Made by a program: the position numbers and the translations under genes. Source: a virus. From it: 64,000 bases of DNA. Under the pieces are notes generated by a model that searched no databases, was not told the origin of the DNA, and saw only the letters and a list, made by a program, of their open reading frames with translations. Positions within the stretch are counted from its first letter, which is position 1. Each line of letters starts with the position of its first letter. Where the stretch lies: positions 1 to 64,000 of IMG/VR virus record IMGVR_UViG_3300022173_000074, one strand, 5' to 3'. Shown one piece after another: positions 3,180 to 19,795 of this stretch.

Positions 3180-3206
3180 CAGCAACACACAAGAAAGGGA
3201 TTCAAC

Positions 3207-3785: not shown

Positions 3786-3813
3786 TTTAGTCAGTATAAA
3801 GAGGACTCAGAAA

Positions 3814-4629: not shown

Positions 4630-4955
4630 AAAAGGCCTGGAATGTTACCTTTGAAATAGTAACGGAAGAAAGCGCGGAAATTGGCGACGCTGAGTCGCGC
4701 GGCTTTATTATCGAAGGCGCGACACTTCGCGAAGCGCTGGCGGCTTTTTCATTTTGTGGCGTAGCAGAATACGCCAGCGCCATCAGCGCCGACTCCTCGC
4801 ATATAAGCGTAAGCAATCCGCCCCGATGGTTCGACTCAGAGACAAGCCAAAACTTCGAGACAGGCGAGAACGAGACTCGCGCGCTGCATATCCCTGAAGG
4901 CGTGACTCCAGCGTCAAGCATGCGCCTCGCGCGCCTTCTAGGCGTCATAGGCTAG
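4626..4955 (+). CDS. hypothetical protein
   Basis: Start at ATG 4626 (MKKAWN) overlapping upstream stop. Confidence 0.45.
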   Translation: MKKAWNVTFEIVTEESAEIGDAESRGFIIEGATLREALAAFSFCGVAEYASAISADSSHISVSNPPRWFDSETSQNFETGENETRALHIPEGVTPASSMRLARLLGVIG

Positions 4956-5031
4956 ACGCTCCACCATAAGCCAGCTAGGCGCCCGTGCATCACGCATAGG
5001 GCGCCTTTCGGCGTATGAGGCTTAGAAACAT

Positions 5032-5259
5032 ATGAGCAAAACACATCGCCGCCAGTGGCGGCTTTCAGTCTTTGAGATTGGGGAGTATGGCGAGTCGAAG
5101 TGGACTCGCGTTTACTCTTGCCCAAAGAACGCGAGGCGCGGCGCTGCAAGGATAGCGCGGCGCCGTTTGACGTGGCGCGACTCTGAAGCTGGCGTGCTTA
5201 CTCGCGCGCGGCTGATCTTGTTTGATGTTCGCCGCGTCGATAGCGGGGCGCCCGCATGA
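5032..5259 (+). CDS. hypothetical basic protein
   Basis: ORF preceded by GC-rich hairpin region. Confidence 0.4.
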   Translation: MSKTHRRQWRLSVFEIGEYGESKWTRVYSCPKNARRGAARIARRRLTWRDSEAGVLTRARLILFDVRRVDSGAPA

Positions 5260-5513
5260 CAATCGTTGGCGAGATACTAGACACCCTTAAGCGCCTCCCT
5301 GAATTCGATTGCGCGCGCTTGATCGTTTGCGATTGGGAATCGTGCGCCGCGCCTTCGCGCTGGATTGTTTCAATTCAGAGCGCGGGGCGCGTTGTCTTAG
5401 AGGCGCGCGGCGCTAGTGCTGATGCAGCGCTAGAGGCTGCACTCACTAAGGCGCAAGAGCTTGCAGGCGCCCGGCGCCAGCGCATTAGATCGAAGGCGGA
5501 TTTATTGGATTAG
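5256..5513 (+). CDS. hypothetical protein
   Basis: ORF with ATGA overlap to upstream gene. Confidence 0.45.
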   Translation: MTIVGEILDTLKRLPEFDCARLIVCDWESCAAPSRWIVSIQSAGRVVLEARGASADAALEAALTKAQELAGARRQRIRSKADLLD

Positions 5514-5715
5514 ATCGAAGCCGCGAAGCGCGGCGCTTCAGACAATCGAGCGCGATTCAGAAGAGGCTTAGGCCTGGCATGAGTCGTTAAAAATTCATGC
5601 AGAATCACGCATGGATTCTGACTGTCTGAATCCGCACGGATCGAAATAAGGCAGCGGCCGGCTGGCTGCAGCCCGATGCGTCCGGTCGCCGGCAAAAATC
5701 GAGATCGAGGGGCCT

Positions 5716-5815
5716 GGCCCCACCACCGGGGAAATCGGAACCCCCCACCGTTAGGGAAATCCATTGCTACCTACCACCGGGGAAATCGGACTAGCCCACC
5801 ACCAGGGAAATCCAG
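5716..5815. repeat. iteron-like array: 4 direct copies of CCACC(N3)GGGAAATC(C/G)(G)A spaced 22-29 bp
   Basis: Copies at about 5721, 5745, 5772, 5797, read directly. Hairpins upstream at 5590-5650 and a TTGACA-like hexamer downstream at 5830. Confidence 0.7.
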
Positions 5816-5894
5816 GGTCACGCCCAGGTTGACAGTCTGGCATGGGGTGTGCAATGCAGCGGACAGGGCAGGAAACAGTGCATTGGAGTGTATT

Positions 5895-6011
5895 ATGATG
5901 GAATTCTTATTTGGCGTTACCACTGGCGCTGTGCTGGTGCATTTCTTCCCGTCGCTGAACGTCCCGGTCAAAATGGCCGTGGATAAAATCAAGGAATGGA
6001 TGACAAACTAA
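5895..6011 (+). CDS. possible small hydrophobic peptide (MMEFLFGVTTGAVLVHFFPSL...)
   Basis: Short ORF after iteron region with GGAG upstream. The longer ORF 5676..6011 is rejected because it only translates the iterons. Confidence 0.25.
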   Translation: MMEFLFGVTTGAVLVHFFPSLNVPVKMAVDKIKEWMTN

Positions 6012-6256
6012 TGCGCAAGCAAGGTATTGCGATGATTGCGGCCGCCGCTGCACTGGCTATGGCTGGTGGCGGCGTGCCTATCGAACCACGGCGCGGTCGC
6101 ATGAAGCCGGCCGACCCCGAGAGCACAGGCGCTAAGCTCGCCAAGAGCTTCGCCCGTGTCATGGAGAAGCGCACACCGGCTGATGTGCTGCGCATCCAGA
6201 AGGCCGAAGAGAAGCGTCAGCGAAAGGCTGCACGCCGCCGCGAGATCGGCCAATGA
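5996..6256 (+). CDS. hypothetical protein (Ala-rich N-terminus, basic C-terminus)
   Basis: ORF. Confidence 0.4.
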   Translation: MDDKLMRKQGIAMIAAAAALAMAGGGVPIEPRRGRMKPADPESTGAKLAKSFARVMEKRTPADVLRIQKAEEKRQRKAARRREIGQ

Positions 6257-6702
6257 GCTTCATTCGACTATCTGTCCTTGCTCAAGCGGACCTCTACATC
6301 ACGAAGAATACGGGTGAAGATTTCGCGCATATCGAATGGAACAATAACGGCATCACACAGCATCTAGGACGCATCCGTGCGAACGAGGTCGTGGGCCTAA
6401 TTCAATTCCTCCAAAACGAATTTGCTCCAACGGTTTTGCCAAAATCGGATTTGCCGAATCGGAAGCCAGATCAATTTGGTTCTACGGATTCGGAAATTTT
6501 CGATTTCCATAAACGCTCCGAGATGGCCGCAGGCTTCGGTCAGTCCATCGATCCGTACGCTATGGTCGCCATGGCTATGCGTTGCGGACAGATGGAAGCT
6601 GCGCTGAAGTCGATCAAAGCTTACGCCGAGAACGCTGTCATGGGCGCGTGGCGCGGAACTGTTCAAGAGATGGCGGCACTAGGCTTGCAATCGAAATCCT
6701 AG
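6253..6702 (+). CDS. hypothetical protein
   Basis: ORF, contains internal copy of the CGGATTCGG/GGAAAT motif at 6475-6501. Confidence 0.4.
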   Translation: MSFIRLSVLAQADLYITKNTGEDFAHIEWNNNGITQHLGRIRANEVVGLIQFLQNEFAPTVLPKSDLPNRKPDQFGSTDSEIFDFHKRSEMAAGFGQSIDPYAMVAMAMRCGQMEAALKSIKAYAENAVMGAWRGTVQEMAALGLQSKS

Positions 6703-6716
6703 AATGAATTTCGTTC

Positions 6717-6743
6717 TACCGATTTGGCATTTCGCGAAATCGT
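6717..6743 (+). promoter_or_regulatory. recurrent motif copy (ctaCCGATTTGGcatttcgCGAAATCG) upstream of SPFH gene
   Basis: Related to iteron core TCCGATTTCC; inverted-repeat structure; about 20 bp before GAGGGAA RBS and ATG 6762. Confidence 0.45.
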
Positions 6744-6761
6744 AAACTTGAGGGAATACAC

Positions 6762-7697
6762 ATGCCGATTTCAGGTAACGCAGGCGGCGAAGACGAGAGC
6801 CGCGAACAACGGAGAGAGCGTATGATCGCTGAAGAAATGCAGAACCGAATGAAAGTAATCAGGCTCGCCGGTAAAGGCGCCGCCGGGATTGTCGCTGTGA
6901 TCGTGGCGCTGAACAGCTTCTACACTGTGAACCAATCCCAGCGCGGCATTCACACACGCATGGGCGCCATCGTCGGCGTCTCTGCACCAGGGATGCATTT
7001 CAAATTCCCGATCATCGACGGCGTGCGCAAGCTGAATGTCCGTACACATACGATCCAGTGGCAGAACGTGAACGGCCAAGACAGCCGCATGGAAACCTAC
7101 TCGAAGGACCAACAGCCCGCCGACATCGCCATGACCGTTACGTGGTCGCCGGCGCTTGACGATAAGTCGATTGTCGAACTCTACACGAAGTACGGTTCGA
7201 TCCAGGGCTTCGAGCAAGCTGTGCTGATCCCATCGGCGCAGGAAGCATTCAAGAACGTCTTCGGCGGCTACGACTCTGTCAACGCCATCCAGAAGCGGGC
7301 GCTGTTGAATGCGCAGACCAGCGGTGAAGTGGCCCGTATCACGAAGGGCAAACCGTTCCGACTTGAGAGCGTGCAAATTCAGGACATATCGTTCTCGAAT
7401 GCATATGAGCAAGCGGTCGAAGCGCGCATGACGGCGCAGGTTAACGTCGAAAAGAAAACGCAGGAAAAGATCACGTCCCAGATCGAAGCGGACATGATGG
7501 TGATCGACGCGGAAGCGAAAGCCAAAGCCGTCCGTCTGGCCGGTGACGCGGAAGCTGATGCGATCAAAGCCAAGGCGGATGCTATCGCCAGCAATGCCCG
7601 TCTGGTCGAATACACGGCCGCCCAGCGCTGGAACGGCGAGCTGCCGACTACCATGGTGCCCGGCGGCGCGTTGCCCTTCGTCAAGATCGGACAGTAA
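6762..7697 (+). CDS. SPFH/band-7 (prohibitin/HflC-like) domain protein
   Basis: N-terminal TM (GIVAVIVALNSFYTV), then QRGIHTRMG...PGMHFKFPIIDGVRK and VQIQDISFSNAYEQAVEARMTAQ, matching SPFH/PHB domain signatures; C-terminal Ala/Lys-rich coiled coil. Confidence 0.8.
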   Translation: MPISGNAGGEDESREQRRERMIAEEMQNRMKVIRLAGKGAAGIVAVIVALNSFYTVNQSQRGIHTRMGAIVGVSAPGMHFKFPIIDGVRKLNVRTHTIQWQNVNGQDSRMETYSKDQQPADIAMTVTWSPALDDKSIVELYTKYGSIQGFEQAVLIPSAQEAFKNVFGGYDSVNAIQKRALLNAQTSGEVARITKGKPFRLESVQIQDISFSNAYEQAVEARMTAQVNVEKKTQEKITSQIEADMMVIDAEAKAKAVRLAGDAEADAIKAKADAIASNARLVEYTAAQRWNGELPTTMVPGGALPFVKIGQ

Positions 7698-7710
7698 AAA
7701 CGAATTTTAT

Positions 7711-7741
7711 CCCACGGATTCGGATTTTTCGGATTCGTGGG
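7711..7741 (+). promoter_or_regulatory. recurrent motif copy (cccACGGATTCGGatttttCGGATTCGtggg) upstream of gene 7761
   Basis: Direct CGGATTCG repeats inside a cccacg/cgtggg inverted repeat; followed by GAGGGAAT RBS. Confidence 0.45.
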
Positions 7742-7760
7742 ATAAAGACGAGGGAATGAG

Positions 7761-8006
7761 ATGACGAAGATTGTAGAGCTGCATCCTGAAAAGCGTGCAG
7801 CGGAAGAACTAAACGCCGCCGCGACGGCCTCCGTTATGGCTGAATTTGATCGTATGATCCGACTGGTGGAGGACTCCACTAGCGGCCTCCACGGTCGCAC
7901 CGCGAACTCTATCATGCTGGTGGCGGCACAGCTTACGGTCGCTTCCATAACGGAACGGTCGAACATGAGAGTCGACTCCACTCTCAAAGACATGGGACAC
8001 ATCTAA
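7761..8006 (+). CDS. hypothetical protein
   Basis: ORF with strong RBS. Confidence 0.45.
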   Translation: MTKIVELHPEKRAAEELNAAATASVMAEFDRMIRLVEDSTSGLHGRTANSIMLVAAQLTVASITERSNMRVDSTLKDMGHI

Positions 8007-8398
8007 TGACCGGCAAAATGATCCTGAACGTCTCAGAGCTTGAGCTGTTGTACGCTTACGCTCTGCCTCACATGCGCCTCCCGACTGACAAGGCGCCCTT
8101 GGGCACCTTCCGTAGGCTCGTGGAGAAGGGTCTTGTGCGCGAAGGCGTCGGCAAGGCTGTGATGCCCATGACGATGGAAGAACTTCATATGTCCGGTGAC
8201 GAGACGCCCGAAGAATTCGAGGCGAAGCTGAAGCCCTATCTGATCGACACTCCGGGCTGGGTCATCACGAACAAGGCCATCGGTATTCTACTGTTGGTCG
8301 TCGATCCAGGGAACGAGAAAAAGGCCGAAGCCGTGATGCGGGCCTTCATCGCGGACGAGGACCCGGCTGGACCTTACGATAGCGCCACGAGGGCGTAA
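8006..8398 (+). CDS. hypothetical protein
   Basis: ORF, ATGA/TAATG coupling. Confidence 0.45.
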   Translation: MTGKMILNVSELELLYAYALPHMRLPTDKAPLGTFRRLVEKGLVREGVGKAVMPMTMEELHMSGDETPEEFEAKLKPYLIDTPGWVITNKAIGILLLVVDPGNEKKAEAVMRAFIADEDPAGPYDSATRA

Positions 8399-8685
8399 TG
8401 GACATCCGCCCGACACCCGCGCCACTGCCGCTCGCTGACCGCGACACCGCGCCTTTCTACGTGGTCATTAATTCGTTCCAGCATCCGTTCGAAGAAAAGC
8501 GTGCGAACGTCTATGTGAAGGAAGGAAACTTCTTCCGCTCGCAAGGCGGCTTGACAGACGACTGGGGTAAGAACTGGATCGGGATAGAAGCGAAAGACAT
8601 GAACGACGCCCGGCTGCGGGCGCACGCATCGGAAGGTACGGCATGCCCACGCTGGCATCTTCATCCAGAGAAAGATTACTCGTGA
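8398..8685 (+). CDS. hypothetical protein
   Basis: ORF. Confidence 0.4.
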   Translation: MDIRPTPAPLPLADRDTAPFYVVINSFQHPFEEKRANVYVKEGNFFRSQGGLTDDWGKNWIGIEAKDMNDARLRAHASEGTACPRWHLHPEKDYS

Positions 8686-8852
8686 GATATTCCGCGCCGG
8701 CTTCGCAGGTATTAGCTCAAACGATTTCGGCGGCACGGATGCTGCATGACTGGATCACACAAAGATTCGAGCCGGTTCTTGACGATGATGGGAAGCCCAC
8801 GGGCTATCACCGCGACAAGAAAACCGGCGAGGTCGTAACAATCGAGTATTGA
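8643..8852 (+). CDS. hypothetical protein (start uncertain)
   Basis: ORF overlapping upstream gene by about 40 bp. Confidence 0.3.
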   Translation: MPTLASSSRERLLVRYSAPASQVLAQTISAARMLHDWITQRFEPVLDDDGKPTGYHRDKKTGEVVTIEY

Positions 8853-8853
8853 A

Positions 8854-9162
8854 ATGGTGACTATGAAATGCGAAACGCTGATCGGCCCGTTGCGCCAGTC
8901 CACTGGCGTTGCGCCTCCGGTCGATCTATCCCCCGATCAAACGCAAACCGCGTTGACAGCCTGCATGATTCGTCAAGCCGAACGCGGCGAAGAAATATTC
9001 TACGGCGCTGTATGGAGGAAGATCGCTCGCACGGATTTGATGGACGACATCAGAACTTGGTCCAGCGATTGCAAGGCAGCACGATATGTCGGGAAGGCAA
9101 CTCGCGGCGCCCGGATCACGGACACTCACTTCTTTGTCATAGATTGCTACTCAGATGGTTAA
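8854..9162 (+). CDS. hypothetical protein
   Basis: ORF. Confidence 0.4.
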   Translation: MVTMKCETLIGPLRQSTGVAPPVDLSPDQTQTALTACMIRQAERGEEIFYGAVWRKIARTDLMDDIRTWSSDCKAARYVGKATRGARITDTHFFVIDCYSDG

Positions 9163-9934
9163 ACCGACCTTCATATGCCAACGCCACAGTTGCATCGACT
9201 GCCCGGACCCGAAGTGCGATCCCAGCCTATTCGGTGTGCCGGATGTCTATAGCAACCCTGTCGATTTCATCTGCGCATCATGGAAAGTCGGTGATGACGA
9301 AGTCCAGAATACAGACCAGCTCGAAGTCTACGAAGCGGCGTGCAAAGCCCACGGAGTCGAAGTTCACACTCACGGCATCCTCGCCGGAAAAGGCAGTCGC
9401 GGAAGCTCTATCGATGCACTTCGGGCTTACTGCGAGGCGGATGTTGCTCTCGAAAGAAAGCTTTACACCATGGGACACTCTCACGATCCGCGTCCGCCGC
9501 TACCCGCCTGGAAAAGAGCGATCAACTTTCTTCTACATCACACTTACTTCGGGCGTTGGTTCCCGATCTTCGGGCGCGCGCCGTACTTCAAAGACAGCAT
9601 CACCGTCCGAGGCACCGTCAGAGACATCAGCGAGTTCGACTACGAAACCCCACACCGCTGGCCTGAAGGCACCGGCAAAACGTGGGACCCGAACCCTTGG
9701 GCGCAGCGAGCAATAGCCGTGCCGAAGCAAACGCGAATCGTCCGCCGCTGCCGATGGATGCCGGAGAAGTACAAGGGTCAGAAGCTCTATTTCGCCATCG
9801 TCGATTGGGGCGACTCATTCCACAACTACGCGCATCTGTTTGAGACGAAACAGGAGTGTGATTTTATGGGCGCTCGCCCTAAAGCGCCATCACACAATCG
9901 CATCGTCTGCAAGGGTTCGGTCATTTTCAAGTGA
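9155..9934 (+). CDS. hypothetical protein (Cys-rich N-terminus)
   Basis: 259-aa ORF. Confidence 0.45.
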   Translation: MVKPTFICQRHSCIDCPDPKCDPSLFGVPDVYSNPVDFICASWKVGDDEVQNTDQLEVYEAACKAHGVEVHTHGILAGKGSRGSSIDALRAYCEADVALERKLYTMGHSHDPRPPLPAWKRAINFLLHHTYFGRWFPIFGRAPYFKDSITVRGTVRDISEFDYETPHRWPEGTGKTWDPNPWAQRAIAVPKQTRIVRRCRWMPEKYKGQKLYFAIVDWGDSFHNYAHLFETKQECDFMGARPKAPSHNRIVCKGSVIFK

Positions 9935-10542
9935 GGGTTCTGGTCGCGTGTGAGTTCTCCGGCGTCGTGCGCCGCGCCTTCCGAGAGCGCGGCCACACCG
10001 CGTACTCGTGCGACATCATCCCGTCCGAGGACAACAGCCCCTATCACATCCAGGAAGACGTTCTGAGCGTGCTGGACGAGGGCTGGGACCTTATGGTGGC
10101 CCATCCGCCCTGCACGCGGCTCTGCGCATCAGGGACGCGCTGGCTCAATAAGCCGCCGCCCGGTCGCACGGTCAAAGATATGTTCCGGGAGCTGCAACAG
10201 GCCGCCGACCTCTTCACGTTGCTCTACCATGCGCCGATCAAACACGTCGCCGTGGAGAACCCCATCATGCACAGCTATGGCCGGCTGGCGATGCCCACTG
10301 TGCCGCCCTATCGGCAGATCATACAGCCGTGGCAGCACGGGCACGGCGAGCTGAAGACGACGTGCCTGTGGCTGAAAGAACTTCCACTGCTACAGCACAG
10401 CAAGATAGTGGAAGGGCGCGAGATGCGAGTGCATCGGATGTCCGAGAAGCCTGACCGGGCGAAAGAGCGGGCGCGTACCTATACCGGGATCGCGGCGGCG
10501 ATGGCGAAGCAATGGGGCGATTATGTTTCACAAATGGATTAA
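9931..10542 (+). CDS. short C5-cytosine DNA methyltransferase-like protein (motifs I, IV, VI only)
   Basis: VLVACEFSGVV (FxGxG-like motif I), AHPPCTRLCASG (PC motif IV), VAVENP (ENV motif VI). Only 203 aa, so no obvious TRD or motifs IX/X. Confidence 0.5.
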   Translation: MRVLVACEFSGVVRRAFRERGHTAYSCDIIPSEDNSPYHIQEDVLSVLDEGWDLMVAHPPCTRLCASGTRWLNKPPPGRTVKDMFRELQQAADLFTLLYHAPIKHVAVENPIMHSYGRLAMPTVPPYRQIIQPWQHGHGELKTTCLWLKELPLLQHSKIVEGREMRVHRMSEKPDRAKERARTYTGIAAAMAKQWGDYVSQMD

Positions 10543-10840
10543 GCTTTCACCGAAGCACCATGTCTGCGCACACTGCGGAATGATGAAAGAGACAGTCGGC
10601 ACCGGCCCGATATGGAGCGGTAACTATCCGTTCTTCATCTACCGGCGCGGCGCGGATTCGACTCAGGGTTCGGTTACACCTAAATGCGAAAGAGCCTGGC
10701 TTCCGGGCGAAGTGGTCCGGTTCGACTGGTATGGCTCGATTATTGAATTGAAAGCTGGTCATGTCTCAGATGAAGAAAAGCTCGAAATCCCGAAGCCGAC
10801 AGCACGGTTTCTCCGTGCGGGCTTTAGCAGCGGAACGTGA
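10523..10840 (+). CDS. hypothetical protein with CxxC (HHVCAHCG)
   Basis: ORF. Confidence 0.35.
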   Translation: MFHKWIKLSPKHHVCAHCGMMKETVGTGPIWSGNYPFFIYRRGADSTQGSVTPKCERAWLPGEVVRFDWYGSIIELKAGHVSDEEKLEIPKPTARFLRAGFSSGT

Positions 10841-10883
10841 TCGTCACGACTGCGACGGAGTCTTGCTTGAAGCTGACTGGCAG

Positions 10884-11066
10884 ATGACGGGTAATGGCGT
10901 AATCCTTACCGGCCGGCTCTACGCGGACAGACATGGTCAACTAAAAGATGACACATCGGTCTGGACCTCTTTAGTGCTTGACGGGCCGGATCGCTTCGGA
11001 GTAGTGACCACGCAGATGTCCAAATACCTCTGCGTATTTGTTTATAGGGAATGTGATGTCAACTAG
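10884..11066 (+). CDS. hypothetical small protein (start uncertain)
   Basis: ATG 10884 downstream of previous stop in frame of ORF 10761..11066. Confidence 0.2.
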   Translation: MTGNGVILTGRLYADRHGQLKDDTSVWTSLVLDGPDRFGVVTTQMSKYLCVFVYRECDVN

Positions 11067-12093
11067 TGTATTCGACTTCGCGGCGATCAATCGCACGATG
11101 AAGGACAAAGGCCTGGACCATGACGAGCCAGCGCCGCGCGCCGAAAAGCTCCCTTCGCAATTGCTCGAAGCGGTCGCCGAAAGTCTAGACATTTCCTACG
11201 CCAAGCTTCTGAAAGACTACAGAGGCGGTCTTGGAACGCGAGCGACCGGCGGCGTTGTCGGCGGCCCGCGTCCAGGCTACGGCGAAGGCCCGAACGGCTA
11301 TTGCTACAAAGGCACCTGGAACGCCTTCGACAACTATCTGGAAGACGACATGGTCGTATGCCCCGACCAGAGCGGCAATTCCGATGACGATGAATACTAT
11401 GCCTGCAAAACTTCGATCAACGGCGCGAAGCCCTGTCACACTCCGGCCTTCTGGCGCCCGATGACGCTCCGAGAAGTCGATCTTGTTCTTGGCCGGCCAA
11501 CCCGAAAGACCCTCCCCAAGCAACAGCCCAGCCAAGCGCAATACGATCCGTCTATGACCTGGAAAGGCATGTGGGATAAAACCGCAGTCTACAAAGCGGG
11601 CGACATCGTACATCACGACGGGGCGAAGTTCCGCTGTCTATCTGACAACGCCGGATATGAGCCAACGAAGGGCACATTCTGGCAGATGGAAGTTCAGCCA
11701 GTGTTGACGGCGACACAAAAGATGCAGATGCAAAATCGTTTGCTTCGTACCCCCACCGTGAAGGTTTCGTTTCCGCACCTGAAGCGCCCGAAACCTGTGG
11801 ATCGTGTGACGCAGCAAGATTGTCAGACGTATCTTTCGTCCACGGAATACGGCGAAGTGCTGAACATCGTGAAGGTGCCTTACACGAAGCGGTCTGATAC
11901 TTTGCATCGCCGCCTGCGCGAACTGTTCAACACGGTGCGCAAGAACCGTCAGCTTTATGCTGGCTACAGCGGACCCAAGACAGGCCGTTGGAACGGTAGC
12001 GGCGCCAACCCGATCCCACAGCCGAAGGTAGACGAGCCGAAGTCGAATCCAGGACCTTACAAACGCATCGATACCGATCTGTTCCGGTTCTAA
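11056..12093 (+). CDS. hypothetical protein
   Basis: Start at ATG 11056 (MSTSVFDF) with AGGGAA RBS. Confidence 0.5.
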   Translation: MSTSVFDFAAINRTMKDKGLDHDEPAPRAEKLPSQLLEAVAESLDISYAKLLKDYRGGLGTRATGGVVGGPRPGYGEGPNGYCYKGTWNAFDNYLEDDMVVCPDQSGNSDDDEYYACKTSINGAKPCHTPAFWRPMTLREVDLVLGRPTRKTLPKQQPSQAQYDPSMTWKGMWDKTAVYKAGDIVHHDGAKFRCLSDNAGYEPTKGTFWQMEVQPVLTATQKMQMQNRLLRTPTVKVSFPHLKRPKPVDRVTQQDCQTYLSSTEYGEVLNIVKVPYTKRSDTLHRRLRELFNTVRKNRQLYAGYSGPKTGRWNGSGANPIPQPKVDEPKSNPGPYKRIDTDLFRF

Positions 12094-12094
12094 C

Positions 12095-12526
12095 GTGAAG
12101 GAAGTATCGCCTAAAGAGGGGCCGCTCTGCGCGGCGGCGCGGGAGTGGCTCTCTCAGGCGATCATCCGTGAACGGTATATTTATTTCACCGGCGACATGA
12201 AGAAAGTCATGTCGTCGCCCGAGCAACGGATGACGATTGAACAGCGCGAACGCCACAACCGAAAGCGAGCCGCCGCCAAAGCCGCTGCGAAGGCCAAGGG
12301 TGAGAAGTACAAAGCGATACCACTGGTGGACGAGTTCGCCGCCATGCGGCCTGACGTGCTCGCGCTGATGGAAATGATGGAGTTGCACGAGCTGCATGGG
12401 CTGGTGCATCTCCGAACGATTGTTCTGCACGACGGCGACCGCGCGTACGAAGCGGTCATGCGCTTGCAGAGAAACGGATTGCGCAAGGTGCGCGAACGCT
12501 TTGGCGTAACGACTGGTGCGACATGA
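12095..12526 (+). CDS. hypothetical protein (Lys/Ala-rich central region)
   Basis: ORF; GTG start at 12095 or ATG 12197. Confidence 0.4.
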   Translation: MKEVSPKEGPLCAAAREWLSQAIIRERYIYFTGDMKKVMSSPEQRMTIEQRERHNRKRAAAKAAAKAKGEKYKAIPLVDEFAAMRPDVLALMEMMELHELHGLVHLRTIVLHDGDRAYEAVMRLQRNGLRKVRERFGVTTGAT

Positions 12527-13521
12527 CGGCTGTTAAATTCAATTCAGTGTGCAGCGGCATCGAAGCCGCCAGTCATGCCGTGGCGCCGTTAGGATGGAAG
12601 GCCGTGGCCTTCAGCGAGATCGAGCCGAACGCCTGCGCATTCCTCGCTGACCGATACCCGCACGTCCAGAACGTCGGAGACATGCTCGCCGTCGATTGGT
12701 CGCGGCCTCGCTACCATGCGAACGTGCTGATCGGTGGCACGCCATGCCAGAGCTTCTCCGTCCTGGGGGCGTGGCGTAAAGGGGATGGCGCCAAGGAAGT
12801 GCTTGGAGACAAGGACGACCGAGGCAAGCTCGCATATCATTTTATCGACATCGCGGACGAGTCCGACTGCGATTGGTTTCTCTGGGAGAACGTACCGAAT
12901 GTCACAAGCGCGAACGAAGGCAAGTTCTTCAAAAAGTGGCTCCGCAAAGCTAGGGAGCATGGGTTTAATGTCGGATGGCGCGTTCTCGATACCGAAGACT
13001 TCGGCCTTCCCGCGCTCCGCAAGAGGCTATACGCTGTCGGACATCGTGGACCGGCGGCAGAAATCGAGCGCGTACTCTTTCAACCAGGAAACACTAGGGG
13101 GCGTTCTCTACCGGCTGATGCGCAAATCCCTGGTTCAGGAAAGCGGCAAGATCGGCGCGACGGAATTGTTGGCGCGGATTCTATTGTTGTCTTTGACGCA
13201 GCCTCGATCAAACCTAGAGCAAGCAGCACAGCGTTCAATACATTCCTTAAAAGCCATGCAACCCGCGTCGGAGTTGCCTGGGGCGCGGGAGGACGCGGCG
13301 GACCTTACCGTGGGGAGCCGGGGTTTGTCAGGAAAGCCACTGCGGAAGAAGCTGAACTCGCTATGGGCTTTTCTCGTAGCTACACCGATGCCGGAGGGCT
13401 AGACGAGCGCCGCCGTCACGAGATGATCGGCAACAGTTTCTCGCCGGTCGTTATCAATGCGATCTGCGAAGGGATCGACGAATACTACGGAAGCGACTCG
13501 GCCTTCATGCGTAACGACTAA
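12523..13521 (+). CDS. C5-cytosine-specific DNA methyltransferase
   Basis: FNSVCSGIEAAS (motif I), GGTPCQSFSVLG (PCQ motif IV), WFLWENVPN (ENV motif VI), C-terminal GNSFS. Confidence 0.8.
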   Translation: MTAVKFNSVCSGIEAASHAVAPLGWKAVAFSEIEPNACAFLADRYPHVQNVGDMLAVDWSRPRYHANVLIGGTPCQSFSVLGAWRKGDGAKEVLGDKDDRGKLAYHFIDIADESDCDWFLWENVPNVTSANEGKFFKKWLRKAREHGFNVGWRVLDTEDFGLPALRKRLYAVGHRGPAAEIERVLFQPGNTRGRSLPADAQIPGSGKRQDRRDGIVGADSIVVFDAASIKPRASSTAFNTFLKSHATRVGVAWGAGGRGGPYRGEPGFVRKATAEEAELAMGFSRSYTDAGGLDERRRHEMIGNSFSPVVINAICEGIDEYYGSDSAFMRND

Positions 13522-13606
13522 GTCAACTATCGGTTGACTGGTGGCGTAAGACGTGCATATGCTTTCCACATCTGGGACAATCCCAGCCTGTAGAAAGAGA
13601 GTACCT

Positions 13607-14719
13607 ATGAACGCTAATATTAACCAAACACCTTTGGACGTTAAATTCTTCGAGTCGTTTTCGATGCAGAAGAACACGCGCATTTCAAAGGGTGTGACGA
13701 CCACTGATTTCTTCGGCCCAATCGCATACCGCGAGCAAGTCGTCGCCATGCTGAAGTCCAGCCTGGGGAACCGGGAGATCAAACGCGGCAAAGTCAAAGA
13801 GATGTTTGCCAAGATCACGAGCGGCAAGTGGGATCACGCCGTCGCGTCTCTGAAGTTCTATATCGATCCACGCGGCAAGATCAGTCTGATGGGCGGCCAC
13901 CACCGTCTTGAAGCTTTGCTCGCTGCCTTCGATGCCGATCCCCTGTTCGCCGGCGTGGACATCGTCTGCACGGTAAGCCCGAACAAGGACATCGCGATCT
14001 ACGATAACGAAGCCGCCGTTGCCTCTATGACGGATCATTTTATGATGGCGCAGAACTCGTTCCTGCGTGAAAAGTCGGAAGCCGCTGCGGGCGCGGCTCT
14101 GATCGTCTTCGTATCGCGCTATCTGATGGGCGGCATCGATCTGCCATCCGATCAGAAGATCACCATCGGCAACAAATACCAGAACGAAATTCGTCGCGCG
14201 GTTTCCGAGCTTCGCGGCGCCGACAAAGCAACACGCAAGTCGCTGGTGCCTCTGCATATCATTTCGCAGATCGCCGGGCAGCAAATGGTGTTGACTGATT
14301 TCGTTCTGCCGGTCGCCACTATGGCGGTTCGTCCGGGCACGGCGGCCTACCTCTACCACAAGGCCATGCACGGCTTCTGGCCGAAGGCGACCTACAAGCG
14401 GATTACTTCGGACGGCGAGACGATCCCTATGGATGCATTCCCGAAGGGCAAGGGCGAAGGCTATATGGGCCTTCTGTTGCATCTTGCGAACATCGCATCG
14501 CAAGGCGCGGAAATCACGAAGCTCAGCGGCTATACTAGCAGCCCTCTGAAGCCTGCGTTCTCCGTTTGGCGGCGTCATCTCTATCGGTCGATCCCCGGTC
14601 AGGATTTTCTGAAATGCTTCGGCTGGACCGCCGACATGGAGAAGACCAAGCTGGATAAGGTTGAAGCCAAACGGTCTAATCGCCGTAGAGCTGTTGACGA
14701 AAATCAGCCTTCCGCGTAA
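13607..14719 (+). CDS. ParB/Srx-like nuclease-domain protein
   Basis: ISLMGGHHRLEAL matches the ParB N-terminal GxxHR motif; start at ATG 13607 with AGAAAGAGAG RBS. Confidence 0.6.
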   Translation: MNANINQTPLDVKFFESFSMQKNTRISKGVTTTDFFGPIAYREQVVAMLKSSLGNREIKRGKVKEMFAKITSGKWDHAVASLKFYIDPRGKISLMGGHHRLEALLAAFDADPLFAGVDIVCTVSPNKDIAIYDNEAAVASMTDHFMMAQNSFLREKSEAAAGAALIVFVSRYLMGGIDLPSDQKITIGNKYQNEIRRAVSELRGADKATRKSLVPLHIISQIAGQQMVLTDFVLPVATMAVRPGTAAYLYHKAMHGFWPKATYKRITSDGETIPMDAFPKGKGEGYMGLLLHLANIASQGAEITKLSGYTSSPLKPAFSVWRRHLYRSIPGQDFLKCFGWTADMEKTKLDKVEAKRSNRRRAVDENQPSA

Positions 14720-14740
14720 TTAGATCGTCCTCCCTAACTT

Positions 14741-14785
14741 GAAGCCCCCGGCACGCCTGAAAAACAGCCGGGGGCTTTTCTTTAT
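14741..14785 (+). terminator. rho-independent terminator (agcccccgg-N16-ccgggggct followed by TTTTCTTTAT)
   Basis: Perfect 9-bp GC stem and T-run read from sequence, just after the ParB-like gene. Confidence 0.7.
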
Positions 14786-14805
14786 CAAGCACTTACAGGG
14801 CGGGC

Positions 14806-14835
14806 TTGCATTTCCCGCGATCTGCCGCGTAATAG
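14806..14835 (+). promoter_or_regulatory. sigma70-like promoter candidate (TTGCAT-18-TAATAG)
   Basis: Hexamers read from sequence upstream of gene 14857. Confidence 0.3.
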
Positions 14836-14856
14836 GGGCTTGCCCCGGAGACGACC

Positions 14857-15306
14857 ATGCGCCCTGACGCCGCCTTTCAAGAGTTCGCCAAGCGACATTT
14901 GCCGAAGGGCTGGAAGGTCAAATACTGGCGCACGCGGCCTTATGTGTTGAACGTCCGTGGATACCGAGGCCAGGCCTGCGCGGCGCTCTGTGACAGCGGC
15001 CCGAAGATTATCTGGATGAACCCTACCCAGTTCACCGAACCCCACCAGGACCCCTATTGGACATTCGCCCACGAGGTCGGCCACGCCCGCGATCCGATGT
15101 TGGAGATCATCGGGTATCCCGAATACCTTGCCGAATATTTCGCCGAGCGCGAGGCCGCCGCGATCTTCCGAGCTGACGGCCGCCGCGTTAGTCGCGAGAA
15201 CGTGCGCCAAGGTAAACAGTACGTGCAACGCATGGCCTACCACGAGGGCTTGCAATTCCAAGAGCTGCGCGCGGACGTACGCCGCTGGATCGGCTCAGTG
15301 TACTAG
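14857..15306 (+). CDS. putative zinc metallopeptidase (HEVGH motif)
   Basis: WTFAHEVGHARDP contains HExxH; 149 aa (SprT/ImmA-like size). Confidence 0.45.
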   Translation: MRPDAAFQEFAKRHLPKGWKVKYWRTRPYVLNVRGYRGQACAALCDSGPKIIWMNPTQFTEPHQDPYWTFAHEVGHARDPMLEIIGYPEYLAEYFAEREAAAIFRADGRRVSRENVRQGKQYVQRMAYHEGLQFQELRADVRRWIGSVY

Positions 15307-15317
15307 CACAACTTTTG

Positions 15318-15345
15318 CTTGACACCCTTTTAGCAGTCGTTATTG
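15318..15345 (+). promoter_or_regulatory. sigma70-like promoter candidate (TTGACA-16-TATTGA)
   Basis: Hexamers read from sequence; followed by AGAGGGAAA RBS and ATG 15370. Confidence 0.35.
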
Positions 15346-15369
15346 ATCGACCGGCAAAGAGGGAAACTT

Positions 15370-16041
15370 ATGCGACCACCAGCACGGATCAAAGGCCATG
15401 CGGCCATCCAACATTCCGACATGATGGAATGCCTAGAATGCAAACAACAGTGGGATACGAACGATCCCGATCTGTCGAACCTCCCCTTCTGCCCGGCGGC
15501 CCCGGCCCCGGAGCGCGTACCGGCGCCGATCAATAACACCGCCGCCATCATCCAGCTTCGTGACAAAATGAAAGCCGCTGGCAAGCCGTCGAAGAAGCCG
15601 CCGGTCGTGGACAACACTGCAAAGCGTAAGCCTGTAGTCGTTCCGCCGCCGCGCATGTCGATCCACGACGCGCCGCCGATGCCCCGCGAGAAAATGAAAC
15701 AGTTCAACATGCCGGCCTTCTACGTCGCCTGCGTCGTGTTCTCTGCGGTTCTGACCTTCCTGCTATTCTCGTGTACGGCGCAAGCCCAGACGATCATCCA
15801 GGACCCGGCCAAGCAGCCTTGGATGGGCTACGTTCGTGTGTGCTTCAACGGAAGCGATAAGCAGTGCGGCGTGTTCACCGCGCGAACATACTTCGTGACC
15901 GAGGATGCTTGCGACAAAGAGATGACGAACATTGGCAAGGCAATTGGTTTGCAAATCCTAGCTAAGAATCCAAAAGCCACTTTCCGCATCGACTATATGT
16001 GCGAGCAACCGAAAAACCCAAAGGGCATATCATGGAACTGA
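15370..16041 (+). CDS. membrane protein, Pro-rich N-terminal region, single TM, Cys-containing C-terminal domain
   Basis: TM FYVACVVFSAVLTFLLFSCTA; start moved to ATG 15370 after RBS. Confidence 0.45.
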   Translation: MRPPARIKGHAAIQHSDMMECLECKQQWDTNDPDLSNLPFCPAAPAPERVPAPINNTAAIIQLRDKMKAAGKPSKKPPVVDNTAKRKPVVVPPPRMSIHDAPPMPREKMKQFNMPAFYVACVVFSAVLTFLLFSCTAQAQTIIQDPAKQPWMGYVRVCFNGSDKQCGVFTARTYFVTEDACDKEMTNIGKAIGLQILAKNPKATFRIDYMCEQPKNPKGISWN

Positions 16042-16544
16042 TTTTAGTGTCGGCGATCTTCATCGCCGGCGTCGTGTCTTACTTCGTCGGACACGTCCAC
16101 GGTCGCGCGGCTGGCTGGCTCGAAGGCTTCCAGGAGCGTAACGAAGACACGTCATACGCGCTGCGGATCGAAGGCAAGGAAACCGACCTCACGATCAAGA
16201 CCTTCGAAGCGCACGCGCATTTAACCGTCCACTCGAAGCTATATGGAACGCCAGACTGGCTTACGCACGTCGCGTTCAAAAACTTCGGGGAAGCTGGCGA
16301 GTTCGCTGAGCACATGGGGAAGGCCAGCCGCGACGACGGATGGTCGATCTTCAAGGGCGCGCGTGATTTCAAGCCAGAGCGGCGGCAAGCCTTGCTTAAG
16401 GAATTGGGCGACCAGCTCTGGTATATCGTGATGTTGGCGCATGAACTTGGTTCCTCGCTCGCTGAAGTCATGTGGATGAATATCAAGAAAAGAGACGGAC
16501 GCATGGCGCGCAACACGATTCTAGGGGCCGGTGATGACCGCTAA
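16032..16544 (+). CDS. MazG-like nucleoside triphosphate pyrophosphohydrolase with N-terminal hydrophobic helix
   Basis: EAGEFAEHMGK ... LGDQLWYIVMLAHELGSSLAEVMWMNIKK matches the MazG EExxE/ELGD(V)LWY pattern. Confidence 0.65.
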   Translation: MELILVSAIFIAGVVSYFVGHVHGRAAGWLEGFQERNEDTSYALRIEGKETDLTIKTFEAHAHLTVHSKLYGTPDWLTHVAFKNFGEAGEFAEHMGKASRDDGWSIFKGARDFKPERRQALLKELGDQLWYIVMLAHELGSSLAEVMWMNIKKRDGRMARNTILGAGDDR

Positions 16545-16782
16545 GAAACCATTGGCCCGCAAGCCCGGCGACGTTCCGGCCGCCGATCCAGCGACCTACG
16601 TTCACCCCAAAGCACTAGGGTCGCGGCACGCGAAGAGATTCGCGTCCGCGTGCATCACCGATGACCAAAGCTTCGCCCTGGTGAAAAATCCAGGTGAGGA
16701 AAAATGGTGGGTATGGGCGCCCATGAGCGATAAAGAGCATGTGGAAGGCCTTATCGATCAGTCCAGCAAAATTCTCGATTGA
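16531..16782 (+). CDS. hypothetical protein
   Basis: ORF. Confidence 0.4.
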   Translation: MMTAKKPLARKPGDVPAADPATYVHPKALGSRHAKRFASACITDDQSFALVKNPGEEKWWVWAPMSDKEHVEGLIDQSSKILD

Positions 16783-16801
16783 AGCCCAGGTAAAAATTTT
16801 T

Positions 16802-16828
16802 TCACGGATTCCCATTTTACGGTTTCGC
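16802..16828 (+). promoter_or_regulatory. recurrent motif copy (tCACGGATTCCcattttACGGTTTCGc) upstream of gene 16851
   Basis: Same family as the motifs at 6717, 7711 and 6475. Confidence 0.4.
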
Positions 16829-16850
16829 TTTTTCTAGGATCAAAAATTCA

Positions 16851-17657
16851 ATGACCGACAAGACAACGCCCAAGTACGAGTTTGGTTTCGAAACGCAGGC
16901 CCGAGAGGCTTTCGAGCGCGGCAATGCCGATCTGGACGCGCTTGAGGCCCCTCTCGGTAAAGACGTTAAATACGGCGGCTGTGAATGCGAGAGCTGTGAG
17001 AACTTGCGCCGCATCGACGCGGCGAACGCCACGCGCAACGGCTCCGGCGGCGTCCCGCTTGAGTTCGATCCTATGGGGGAGAAATCCGCCGCAGAGTATC
17101 GTGCAGCCGGATACGTCGCGGAAGCCGATCAGATGGAGCAGAGCGCCAAGCGGCAGCCCGTCGATCTTCCCGTCGAAGGTTTCTGTGTTGCGTGTGGCGC
17201 CGCCAGTTATAGCTATGAAGATTGCGCCCAGTGCGGACGGAAGGCAGACACAATCGAAGTCGGCGCCGCTATTCTAAAAAACTGTGGGCTGGACGAGTCC
17301 GCCATGCGTAAGATGATGCCAATCGGTACGCTGATTACGGAATACTTCCCCGACGCATTCCTGGGGATGGCGGCCGTCGCCTACGTCGGCAACCAGAAGC
17401 ACAACCCCGGCGAGCACATGCATTGGGCGCGCGGCAAGTCTATGGACCAGTTCGATTGTGTGGTCCGCCACTCTATCGATGCGAAGCGCGCCGGTGCTGA
17501 TGGCTGGGACACCTACTACCTGAAAGACGGGTCGATCTATCAAGTCCGCCACAAAGCCGCAGCGGCGTGGCGTGCAGCGGCGGAAGCCCAGTTAGACGCC
17601 GAGAGTGCAGGCGGCGAAGTCCTGCGTGTGCTTGCCCTTCCGAACAAACCCCAGTAA
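16851..17657 (+). CDS. dATP/dGTP pyrophosphohydrolase-like domain protein with Cys-rich N-terminal region
   Basis: LGMAAVAYVGNQKHNPGEHMHWARGKSMDQFDCVVRHS resembles the phage dATP/dGTP diphosphohydrolase domain (VxxxGxxKYxxxNW); two CxxC pairs upstream. Confidence 0.4.
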   Translation: MTDKTTPKYEFGFETQAREAFERGNADLDALEAPLGKDVKYGGCECESCENLRRIDAANATRNGSGGVPLEFDPMGEKSAAEYRAAGYVAEADQMEQSAKRQPVDLPVEGFCVACGAASYSYEDCAQCGRKADTIEVGAAILKNCGLDESAMRKMMPIGTLITEYFPDAFLGMAAVAYVGNQKHNPGEHMHWARGKSMDQFDCVVRHSIDAKRAGADGWDTYYLKDGSIYQVRHKAAAAWRAAAEAQLDAESAGGEVLRVLALPNKPQ

Positions 17658-17692
17658 GAGCGACACGTCACAACTTATAGGAGAACAGACCC

Positions 17693-19561
17693 ATGGCTGC
17701 AGCCGGTAAGAAAATCCCGTACAAAGAATGCCAGCGCATTGAGCGCTTTCTGAAGAAGAACAAAGGCAATCGCCGCGCCGCCGCTGAAGAGATGCAGGTG
17801 CCGATCACAACCCTGAAGGGCTGGATCGAGAAGGGCCGGCAGCAAGGGTTCGTGTTCAGTCCGCCGCAAGATTTGAAGACGCTAGAGCGCGTAACGAACG
17901 TCACTGAAGCCGAATGTATGGATGCCTGGGGCGTCTACGAACGCTACGGCTACAACGCGGCGGCCGCCGCAGAAGCGATGAACGTCCACATCGGGACCAT
18001 CGAAACCCGCGTCAAGAAAGCCGAACATAAGTACGGCATGCGCCGCCGAAATCTAGGTGTGCAGGACGCCCGCGATGCGGTGCCGCTGAAACGTCCGAAG
18101 AAGGGTGAAGTCAAACGCTATCTTCTGACAGCGGCGCAGAACAACACGAAAATTCACGAACCGACTTGGTTCAGTTTGTTGCAGCTCGCGGAGTATTACG
18201 GTGCAGAAGTCAAAGTCGCTACCTTCACCTACGCACCGCAAGACAGCGCCGGTTCCGAGAAGCGGAACAAAGAGCGCGCGTGGAAAGATCGCGGCCATAA
18301 GGTTGTGGACCGCTGGTACGATCATCATATTGAAGATCACATCTCCGACGCCTTTGAACAGCTCGCGCCCGGCCTCGTGTGGTGCGGTCATACCAACACT
18401 CTGCCGACCGCTGTTGATCCGCTGCGCGGCACCGAGAACCTGAACGGCCGGCACTCCGGCGTCTTCCCGCACACGCGGATGGAAATGCGGTCCATTGCGA
18501 CCTCGCCCGGCGAAGCGACTAAGTTCAACTGGACGACCGGCGCCGTCACTCTGCGAAACTACAAGCAGATGCGTGCCGGTATCGTCGCCGAGTTCTACCA
18601 TTGCTTCGGCGCTTTGCTTGTCGAAGTCGATGACGCTGGCAACTGGTGGTGCCGCCAATTGAACGCCACGAGTGAAGGCGTGATCTGCGACATCGATCTG
18701 TACTCTACCCCTGAAGGCGTCTTCGAGGGCGAGCCAGTGGAAGCGATCAAGTACGGCGACATCCATAAGGCCAACATCGATCCGGTCATCCAGGCGGCTA
18801 CCTGGGGCGAAGGCGGCATGGTAGACGTACTCCGTCCGAAGCGTCAGTTCTTGGACGATCTGTTGGACTTCGAGTCTGGCAGCCACCACAATCGCCGCGA
18901 CCCTCACAAAATGTACGAGCTGCAACACTTCGGACGCAACAGCGTGTGGAACGAAGTGTTGGACGCCGGCGCGTTCGTCGACTCCATTCACCGCGTCTAC
19001 CCTGACGGCACGGAGTCGGAAGAGATCGTCAACGACTCCAATCACGACCGCCATCTGGACCGCTGGCTGAAGGAAGTGCATTGGCACGAAGACTTATCGA
19101 ACGCACGGACCTTGCTTCAGTGCAACGATGCCTGGCTTAGCGCAATTGAGAACGGCGATGCGGATGAATTCGTTCCGCTCGAATGGCTCTGGCGCAAGAT
19201 GGGAGTCGCCAAGTCCGCGTTCGTTATGAACATCCGGTCAGAGCACAAGCGGAAGCTCTCCTACGTGATCTGCGCCGACAAGAGCGGCGGGATCGAAATG
19301 GCCCTGCACGGAGACTTAGGCCCGAATGGTTCTCGCGGCGGCCCGCGTAACCTGTCAAAGCTGGGGCAGAAGAACGTCATCGGCCACAGCCACTCGCCCG
19401 GCATCTTCGGCGGCACGTACGTTGCAGGTGTCACGGGCAAGATGCGGTTAGGCTATAATGTTGGCCCAGGTTCCTGGGGTCACGCGCATGTTGTGGTCTA
19501 CGCGAATGGTAAACGCCAAGTGATCTTGTTCTGGAACGGCAAGCCTTGGGCTGACAGATAG
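17693..19561 (+). CDS. large protein with two N-terminal HTH-like regions; C-terminal region has weak metallophosphoesterase-like motifs
   Basis: NRRAAAEEMQVPITTLKGWIEKG and NAAAAAEAMNVHIGTIETRVKKAE (sigma r4/Mor-like HTH); later YGDIHK, HGDLGPNG, IGHSHSPG, WGHAHVV. Confidence 0.4.
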   Translation: MAAAGKKIPYKECQRIERFLKKNKGNRRAAAEEMQVPITTLKGWIEKGRQQGFVFSPPQDLKTLERVTNVTEAECMDAWGVYERYGYNAAAAAEAMNVHIGTIETRVKKAEHKYGMRRRNLGVQDARDAVPLKRPKKGEVKRYLLTAAQNNTKIHEPTWFSLLQLAEYYGAEVKVATFTYAPQDSAGSEKRNKERAWKDRGHKVVDRWYDHHIEDHISDAFEQLAPGLVWCGHTNTLPTAVDPLRGTENLNGRHSGVFPHTRMEMRSIATSPGEATKFNWTTGAVTLRNYKQMRAGIVAEFYHCFGALLVEVDDAGNWWCRQLNATSEGVICDIDLYSTPEGVFEGEPVEAIKYGDIHKANIDPVIQAATWGEGGMVDVLRPKRQFLDDLLDFESGSHHNRRDPHKMYELQHFGRNSVWNEVLDAGAFVDSIHRVYPDGTESEEIVNDSNHDRHLDRWLKEVHWHEDLSNARTLLQCNDAWLSAIENGDADEFVPLEWLWRKMGVAKSAFVMNIRSEHKRKLSYVICADKSGGIEMALHGDLGPNGSRGGPRNLSKLGQKNVIGHSHSPGIFGGTYVAGVTGKMRLGYNVGPGSWGHAHVVVYANGKRQVILFWNGKPWADR

Positions 19562-19568
19562 AGTTGAA

Positions 19569-19793
19569 ATGAAAAGCGGTGTGACTAAGAGCGTTACCGT
19601 CTCGTTCGATGAAGTGGAAATCTTCGACATGCTTAAGGCGAAAGCCAAGCCGGAGATTGTCCGCCTTATGAACGTGATCGGGGAGCGGGGGATCAATGAT
19701 AAAGCGATCCGCATCTCCAAGACGACCGAGGGCGGCCACGGCAGCGATGGGCAGACGCCCTCGCTGAAGATTACTTTCCACTATTCGGAGTAG
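19569..19793 (+). CDS. hypothetical protein
   Basis: ORF. Confidence 0.4.
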   Translation: MKSGVTKSVTVSFDEVEIFDMLKAKAKPEIVRLMNVIGERGINDKAIRISKTTEGGHGSDGQTPSLKITFHYSE

Positions 19794-19795
19794 CC

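Follow-up and report, generated by a model that had tools for sequence, protein, structure and literature searches.

A triple-box direct repeat ahead of gene starts in the plus-strand arm of an uncultured phage

What is the role of a short repeated element that lies just ahead of unrelated genes in one arm of a phage genome? The question is raised by the IMG/VR virus record IMGVR_UViG_3300022173_000074, of which positions 1 to 64,000 (the window, 64 kb) were analysed. The window is part of a phage-like genome (G+C content 57.5%), and the element is found in its + strand arm (0.9-24 kb), which consists of small genes, most of them without annotation. A preliminary description of this arm had reported a motif of about 27 bp upstream of at least three + strand genes, had assigned it the same core as a group of iterons at 5716-5815, and had proposed a regulon of one DNA-binding protein or a phage-specific promoter class. 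The analysis presented here supports the recurrence of the motif, separates it from the iterons, and points to a putative role in the control of the genes that follow it.

Five copies of a triple-box element

The element occurs five times in the window, in every case on the coding strand (Table 1; S0 and E1 are the copies inside an open reading frame (ORF), IG1 to IG3 the intergenic ones). The sequences given in the preliminary description were confirmed by reading the window, and alignment with MAFFT yields a common block, GAATTT-N2-TyCyACGGATTyGG-(A/T-rich)-TCGGATTyG, that is longer than first described. The repeat is thus real, but its true length is about 40 bp rather than 27 bp and takes in an extra GAATTT box on the upstream side. 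Each element is a direct repeat of three boxes with a length of 8 bp, namely A (AyGAATTT), B (ACSGATTY) and C (TCGRWTTC), with 14 bp from A to B and 15-16 bp from B to C; the spacers between them are variable and T-rich in the five copies.

The relatedness of the copies was measured with leave-one-out position weight matrices (PWMs), which remove the circularity of the motif model. With a 30-nt PWM the sites at 6470, 6704 and 7700 score 36.2, 27.4 and 34.4 bits, each being the top non-training match among ~128,000 positions; the site at 6416 reaches 13.7 bits, and the 5′ block at 16790 only 4.4 bits. A 25-nt PWM of the 3′ part, applied in the same manner, gives 30.6 bits at 7713, 20.6 at 16803, 15.6 at 6483 and 14.5 at 6429. 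The copy 9 kb away is the second-best match of the 3′ block, and nt 16803-16827 are identical to nt 7713-7737 at 21 of 25 positions, where an identity of at least 17/25 is expected about 2 times per 128 kb by chance. The remaining 60 kb of the window hold no comparable match, the next PWM score being 15.5 bits. A possible degenerate look-alike at 5610-5634 has 17/25 identity (68%) to the reference copy of repeat family D1, which is at noise level. An unprimed repeat search returns the motif sites as the two largest direct-repeat families (D1 and D2), and Tandem Repeats Finder (TRF) reports head-to-tail copies of a unit with a period of 14-15 at 6411-6463 (3.7 copies) and of a unit with a period of 15 at 16799-16833 (2.3 copies), with 71-84% matches. 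The copies, which the leave-one-out PWMs, the repeat search and TRF each recover, are related far beyond chance.

The three intergenic copies fill spacers of 59-68 bp in which the Shine-Dalgarno (SD) sequence is the sole other content. A distance of 20-25 bp between motif and ribosome-binding site had been given earlier and does not hold: the end of box C is 7-12 bp away from the SD and 14-23 bp away from the start codon, with box B 39-47 bp before the latter. IG1 fills the gap that separates the stop at 6702 from the SPFH gene (SD 6750-6756, ATG 6762) and has no GANTC. IG2 lies ahead of gene 7761-8006 (SD 7750-7756) and has two GANTC sites; the repeats described at 7711-7741 as lying within a dyad are indeed enclosed by one, which is perfect over 9 bp. 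IG3 precedes gene 16851-17657 (AGGA at 16836-16839). The resemblance of IG1 and IG2 continues through the SD region (TAAAC-TGAGGGAAT vs TAAAG-CGAGGGAAT), and AGGGAA-type SDs are present also at genes without the element.

The two further copies are situated in ORF 6253-6702. The fourth copy of the preliminary description, placed there at 6475-6501, is confirmed as E1, and a fifth, S0, which that account had not included, directly adjoins it. No start codon follows S0. Downstream of E1 there is an in-frame ATG at 6523, 14 bp away, which is the usual distance, and the G+C content at third codon positions (GC3) in 6403-6522 is 0.42, vs 0.58 and 0.67 in the flanks. A separate 59-aa gene starting at this ATG is possible, and ORF 6253-6702 may represent two genes, or a gene with a tail that runs across a putative regulatory array. 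In a word-indexed search of 5.8 billion proteins the sole match of this ORF was itself, and exact look-ups of proteins of the window returned no record. The copies, their boxes, their orientation and their position relative to gene starts are direct observations, as are the homologous elements of related phages.

Counterparts in related phages

Relatives of the window (loci numbered with L) are uncultured phages that were found via the A1-like protein, which is 54-58% identical, and they share its gene order; the cultured-phage collection contains no close relative. Homologous elements are found in several of these phages (Table 1). They have in common with the window the 5′ module AAAyGAATyyG-N5-ACG, and the 3′ boxes of most of them read GAAGCGA where the window has GGATTCG. 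Such a replacement would be the pattern expected of a co-evolving protein/site pair. The element at L007:2235, a non-training match of 16.1 bits, carries the window-like ACGGATTCG. The downstream genes differ between phages.

Equivalent positions can be followed for two of the intergenic copies. The slot of IG2 (7697-7738) is upstream of a small gene that precedes a conserved 130-aa protein (8006-8398), which is kept in L002 and L003/L007 according to tblastn and in L009 by position, and which matched only itself in the word-indexed protein search. This slot is taken by a canonical TTGACA promoter in L007 (3731-3864), where it comes after a canonical terminator, and in L009 (1-88), and because of these promoters it appears to be a transcription-control point in the family. 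IG3 (16790), on the other hand, has no counterpart. The orthologous gene in the relatives overlaps its upstream neighbour, and since no spacer exists there the IG3 element was apparently acquired in the lineage of the window.

Two more relatives from an A1-like profile search, L284 and L285 (54-56% identity), have neither the element nor iterons within 10 kb of the gene; across 1.2 Mb of more distant loci the family PWM gives no score above background (≤19 bits); and the pattern ACGGATTCSSA-N5-7-CGRWTTCS gave single matches only in viral and metagenome collections, all unrelated by tblastn/blastn. The word GATTCGG/CCGAATC was considered as a family-wide intergenic word and rejected, as it occurs outside intergenic DNA too. 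A further intergenic block, ...CCTTTTyc-CCGC-AAAAAtt-GAT-GCCGAATC..., is conserved in the family upstream of a small gene, and in L009 it reads AAAAATTTTTCGGCGGATTTGCAAACTTCGGAATCGG, closely like the window copy at 16790-16828.

The iterons of the window are followed by TTGACA at 5829-5834. The layout of an array ahead of TTGAC(A/C/T) recurs at L002:1-81, L007:975-1094, L010:~3760-3900 and, on the - strand, L261 6343-6470. The number of iterons is four in the window and in L261, at least three in L002, and six both in L007 (ACGGGGAAATG, period 16-17) and in L010; across the family the arrays have 3-6 copies with a period of 16-31 bp, always just upstream of TTGAC(A/C/T). This module resembles a promoter under the control of an activator or a repressor, at which the second block of the + arm would begin. 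A scan of viral contigs with the iteron pattern found mostly unrelated tandem repeats, the only relevant hits being L261 and L182, the latter identical with the L007 contig. Immediately before the iterons, a 162-bp non-coding region holds the inverted repeat CAGAATC-N-GATTCTG at 5596-5634, with five GANTC within 80 bp; the terminator scan flags its - strand.

Table 1. Copies of the triple-box element, homologous elements and associated features
Feature	Position	Strand	Sequence (box start)	Context
Copy S0	6413-6452	+	ACGAATTT (6416), ACGGTTTT (6430), TCGGATTT (6445)	inside ORF 6253-6702; repeat family D2
Extra near-palindromic box	6453-6461		CCGAATCGG	between S0 and E1; has GANTC; read from sequence
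Copy E1	6467-6508	+	ATCAATTT (6470), ACGGATTC (6484), TCGATTTC (6500)	inside ORF 6253-6702; families D1 and D2
Copy IG1	6701-6743	+	ATGAATTT (6704), ACCGATTT (6718), GCGAAATCG (6734)	intergenic
Copy IG2	7697-7738	+	ACGAATTT (7700), ACGGATTC (7714), TCGGATTC (7729)	intergenic; D1 reference copy
Perfect 9-bp dyad	7708-7744	+	TATCCCACG...CGTGGGATA	encloses boxes B and C of IG2
Copy IG3	16790-16828	+	ACGGATTC (16804), ACGGTTTC (16819)	intergenic; upstream A/T box one base nearer
Possible degenerate look-alike	5610-5634	+	CATGGATTCTGACTGTCTGAATCCG	large non-coding region upstream of iterons
Four iterons	5719-5814	+	CCCACCAC(C/T)(G/A)GGGAAATC(G/C)	period 25-26 bp; repeat family D5
Homologous element	L002:641-700			upstream of small gene before 130-aa homologue
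Homologous element L002b	L002:1400-1445		hybrid: CATTCGG then GAAGCGA	just after 130-aa homologue
Homologous element	L005:357-440
Homologous element	L007:1641-1715
Homologous element	L007:2235-2262			directly upstream of SPFH/flotillin gene
Homologous element	L008:402-470
CCTTTTyc-CCGC block	L002:4402-4500, L003:2747-2827, L005:4230-4301, L008:3169-3250, L009:3342-3432
SPFH/Band-7 protein gene	6762-7697	+		Pfam Band_7
T5-A1-like 'DNA transfer protein' gene	17693-19561	+		N-terminal helix-turn-helix (HTH) motifs

Readings of the element

The element is not a sigma-70 promoter, an intrinsic terminator, a conserved RNA structure or a member of a known RNA family. A consensus scan finds no sigma-70-type -35/-10 on the + strand at any copy, and TTGAC occurs in non-coding + strand DNA of the window only at 199, 5829, 13534 and 15319. 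The consensus sequences of sigma-70, sigma-54, ECF, FliA and CtrA sites, DnaA boxes and IHF sites, compared by eye, do not fit at the right spacing. A weak (A/G)TAAA(C/G) follows box C in three copies and would put the start of transcription inside or after the SD. As + strand RNA the IG2 dyad forms a 20-bp hairpin via G-U pairs (-27 kcal/mol, z = -5.56; 0 of 200 shuffles fold equally well), which is confined to this copy and this strand. It is followed by AAAGACGAGG with no U tract, and the terminator scan omits IG2; the length of the hairpin would suffice for a substrate of the RNase III type or for a stabiliser of mRNA ends. The RNA of IG3 is unusually unstructured (z = +2.19, all 200 shuffles folding at least as well), and for S0 the value is z = +0.59. 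Single-sequence z ranges from -5.6 to +2.2, the consensus fold by RNAalifold of 9 elements has 0 pairs, and Rfam gives 0 matches at the gathering threshold. CsrA-like GGA sites, numerous in IG2, were dismissed because they are not kept in relatives.

A cis-regulatory module, either a regulon or a promoter class, is the most reasonable reading of these sequences. The proposal made in the preliminary description is partly supported, by an oriented, gene-proximal motif with homologues in relatives; it is weakened by the lack of a sigma-70 promoter at the copies and of a phage RNA polymerase or sigma factor among the ~50 proteins scanned (Pfam, PHROGs). Our tentative preference is for a DNA-level binding array of a sequence-specific regulator. 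One such protein, probably phage-encoded, would read the triple-box array on DNA and set the expression level of the downstream gene within the long operon that runs from the iteron/TTGACA promoter (5829). It could do so through an internal promoter that depends on an activator, since the sites have no -35, or alternatively as an operator or roadblock. Binding at the DNA level fits best because the spacing of the boxes is fixed and their spacers vary, because orientation is strict, and because the copies occupy spacers for which a tightly packed arm would have no other need, three of them without further recognisable content. The conserved position, the lineage-specific boxes and the promoter at the same slot in two relatives speak for the same, and the lack of a conserved RNA structure or an Rfam family was also counted in its favour. 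From these features we infer that a protein binds, that it does so on DNA and not RNA, and in which direction it acts.

Several observations count against a DNA-level array. No candidate regulator is recognised among the proteins scanned, nor is a repressor or an integrase, and many ORFs are without annotation. The conserved 130-aa protein (8006-8398) was considered and set aside: its winged-helix match is weak (40S ribosomal protein S25, E = 0.28), and the AlphaFold single-sequence model, with a predicted local distance difference test (pLDDT) of 50, is unusable. The copies lack sigma-70-like hexamers, and the 15-bp geometry of the boxes fits no known two-element promoter. The element ends so close to the SD (7-12 bp) that a role in the mRNA fits at least equally well, two copies (6413-6508) are inside an ORF, and of only five copies four lie within 1.4 kb, where local duplication adds to the similarity.

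The proximity to the SD leads to an mRNA-level alternative, in which the repeat is a start-associated element of the transcript just 5′ of the SD. It would be the target of an RNA-binding protein, or an A/U-rich enhancer recognised by ribosomal protein S1, or it would act on local mRNA stability or processing, and in this way tune the translation of single cistrons within a polycistronic message. The distances of boxes to SD and start codon, the strict coding-strand orientation inside an operon with no upstream terminator, the unstructured RNA of IG3 and the + strand hairpin of IG2 all agree with this, as does the similar genomic logic of the extended start-associated sequences (ESAS) of mycobacteriophages, which are found in the non-structural half, in one orientation, before unrelated genes, with a consensus that varies by subcluster (PMC3203893). 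However, the copies have no structure in common, S0 is not followed by a start codon, and no RNA-binding protein is recognisable; this alternative is considered unlikely, if worth keeping in mind. A less probable explanation still is that the element has no dedicated function and is the decaying product of slippage between tandem units of 14-15 bp and of spacer duplication, possibly of linkers in cassette recombination. The TRF arrays, the clustering of four copies in 1.4 kb, the continued similarity of IG1 and IG2 through the SD region, the different downstream genes and the lineage-specific insertion of IG3 are what such a process would leave. Nevertheless, decay would not be expected to keep the 5′ module between phages that are 54-58% identical in a conserved protein, to preserve spacing and orientation, to let equivalent positions recur (upstream of the SPFH gene in L007, for instance), or to leave the copy 9 kb away in second place among matches to the 3′ block (21/25).

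The boxes could also be host CcrM/GcrA sites, in which case expression would depend on the state of adenine methylation and on polymerase-bound GcrA. GANTC occurs in four of the five copies (6456, 6487, 7717, 7732 and 16807) within a depleted arm (42 vs 77 expected in 5651-24000; the rest of the window, 24001-64000, is depleted as well, with 134 vs 182), the elements of relatives are GANTC-rich (four sites in 45 bp in L005), and the hosts are probably alphaproteobacterial, because the family encodes GapR-like and MT-A70 proteins. The preferred site of GcrA is YGAKTCK, located near -20 or from +2 to +30 (PMC4647560). GANTC clustered in the regulatory DNA of an otherwise depleted genome, in a probably alphaproteobacterial host group, is thus a likeness to GcrA/CcrM promoters. 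The differences are that IG1 lacks GANTC, that every box A of the window reads GAATTT, that GGATTCG breaks the Y of YGAKTCK, that conservation extends far past GANTC (ACGG, T-rich spacers, fixed spacing), and that GcrA works at sigma-70 promoters, none of which is visible at the copies; CcrM/GcrA control is accordingly held to be improbable. A broader variant is rated lower again: the element would be a family-wide start-associated control, in which a phage-encoded factor reads boxes, phased at 14-15 bp, that are at, or one mutation from, GANTC, and the adenine methylation of injected vs replicated DNA, together with the GANTC-dense early arm that ends at the iterons, would switch the accessory genes located after the iteron promoter.

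Equally doubtful is a single regulon in which one protein would bind both the motif and the iterons (5716-5815). In its favour, AWTCGGA is common to two iterons and two motif copies, a 10-nt PWM of the iteron core finds weak matches in the motif regions (per-region chance 0.01-0.17), and the iterons of L007 and L010 begin with ACGG, like box B. But a full 20-nt iteron PWM, which gives 27-30 bits on the four iterons, in the motif regions never exceeds 7.7 bits, the motif PWM fails to pick up the iterons, and the motif regions do not fit the iteron consensus CCCACCACCGGGGAAATCGG and match the core GGGGAAAT weakly at best. The core conserved in the family is GGGGAAAT(G/C); the ATCGG tail, to which two window iterons owe their likeness to the motif, is missing from L007 and L010. 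The two kinds of site do not co-vary between phages, as L002 and L007 have GGGGAAAT in their iterons and mostly GAAGCGA in their intergenic boxes. The shared core claimed at the outset is therefore not upheld, and a single site family, judged from the sequences, is not supported beyond a weak core resemblance. The two are alike as direct repeats on the same arm and strand that are conserved in the family and probably bind protein, and they differ in core (GGGGAAAT vs CGGATTCG), in period (25 bp vs 14-16 bp) and in place, the iterons lying upstream of a -35 hexamer and the motif abutting the SD.

Among described systems the motif ranks as an ordinary kind of phage feature, a start-proximal or intergenic repeat of putative regulatory role, in a new form. 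In the middle promoters of T4, the MotA box replaces the -35 as a single box at -30, and its distance from a clear -10 (TAnnnT) is constant. The present element resembles them in having box-type sites without TTGACA at genes after the earliest class, and differs in that only the weak (A/G)TAAA(C/G) follows box C, in three copies. The start-associated sequence (SAS) of Cluster K mycobacteriophages is a 13-bp block that includes the SD and lies 3-7 bp from the start codon, and the ESAS is a 17-bp inverted repeat, with dozens of copies in those phages (PMC3203893). Similarly, the present repeat is short, confined to the non-structural arm, in one orientation, before the starts of unrelated gene families (S0 excepted), and kept in related phages, its consensus varying by sub-lineage; the function of SAS/ESAS is unassigned too. 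In form it is neither, being a triple direct repeat 5′ of an ordinary SD, in five copies and in an unrelated host lineage. Stoperators of Cluster A mycobacteriophages are single sites of 13-14 bp, ~20-30 genome-wide, that are bound by the immunity repressor (PMC9283540, PMC6550527). They too are asymmetric, oriented with transcription, placed in short intergenic spaces and inside operons, and co-evolve in sequence with the regulator between related phages; here all five copies are on the coding strand and three in 59-68 bp spacers. Stoperators differ as single sites of temperate phages, whereas the copies here are few (n=5), confined to 6.4-16.8 kb of the window, and each a three-box array.

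If a regulator array or promoter class is indeed present, the control points of an accessory-gene operon would be defined in a little-known group of uncultured phages that carries the T5-A1-like protein, probably infects alphaproteobacteria, and has no annotated regulator or promoter. The boxes would then be a handle for finding the cognate protein, and GGATTCG vs GAAGCGA a small natural experiment in the co-evolution of site and reader. The GANTC-dense arm and the conserved iteron and promoter module are more unusual than the motif itself.

Genome setting and further repeats

The GANTC-dense arm spans 400-5650 of the window and has 81 GANTC vs 26.7 +/- 5.3 under a second-order Markov model of the local sequence, a density of 15.4 per kb, with a G+C content of 51.6% and small ORFs of low GC3. 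The dense block ends at the iterons also in L010 (1-3000; 17-20 per kb) and L007 (1-1000; 11 per kb), and its sites have no extended surrounding consensus. The more distant A1-like phages L287, L327 and L333 nearly avoid GANTC (L287 has 3 sites in 21 kb), and counter-selection against it therefore varies sharply within the wider phage group.

Further genes of the + arm encode three DNA methyltransferases and MazG-like, dGTP-diphosphohydrolase-like and GapR-like (19891-20352) proteins. The - strand arm (64 to 24 kb) encodes DNA polymerase A, a SNF2 helicase, a gpA-type terminase, structural proteins and a GH19 endolysin. A gene trio at 15999-19561 (MazG-like, dATP/dGTP-diphosphohydrolase-like PF18909, and the T5-A1-like protein with N-terminal HTH) is kept in all relatives, and together with the three methyltransferases it suggests manipulation of the nucleotide pool or DNA modification; no PurZ-like gene was seen in the window. 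A strong hairpin, GCCCCCGGC...GCCGGGGGC followed by TTTTCTTTA, is located between convergent genes at 14744-14784 and is probably the end of the transcription unit that begins at 5829. The TTGACA at 15319 opens the next block.

A second start-proximal repeat is found in the late (-) arm. Two exact copies of GTCGGGCGCTAAAGC (- strand) lie at 26199-26213 and 47732-47746, ~15-25 nt upstream of the SD of two genes, one with its end at 26176 and the other at 47708. CGCCGAATAGGAG is present both in the spacer at 26177 and in that at 50974 (50974-51018). The late-arm repeat contains GCTAAAGC, which is close to GCTANAWC, the Caulobacter -10 consensus.

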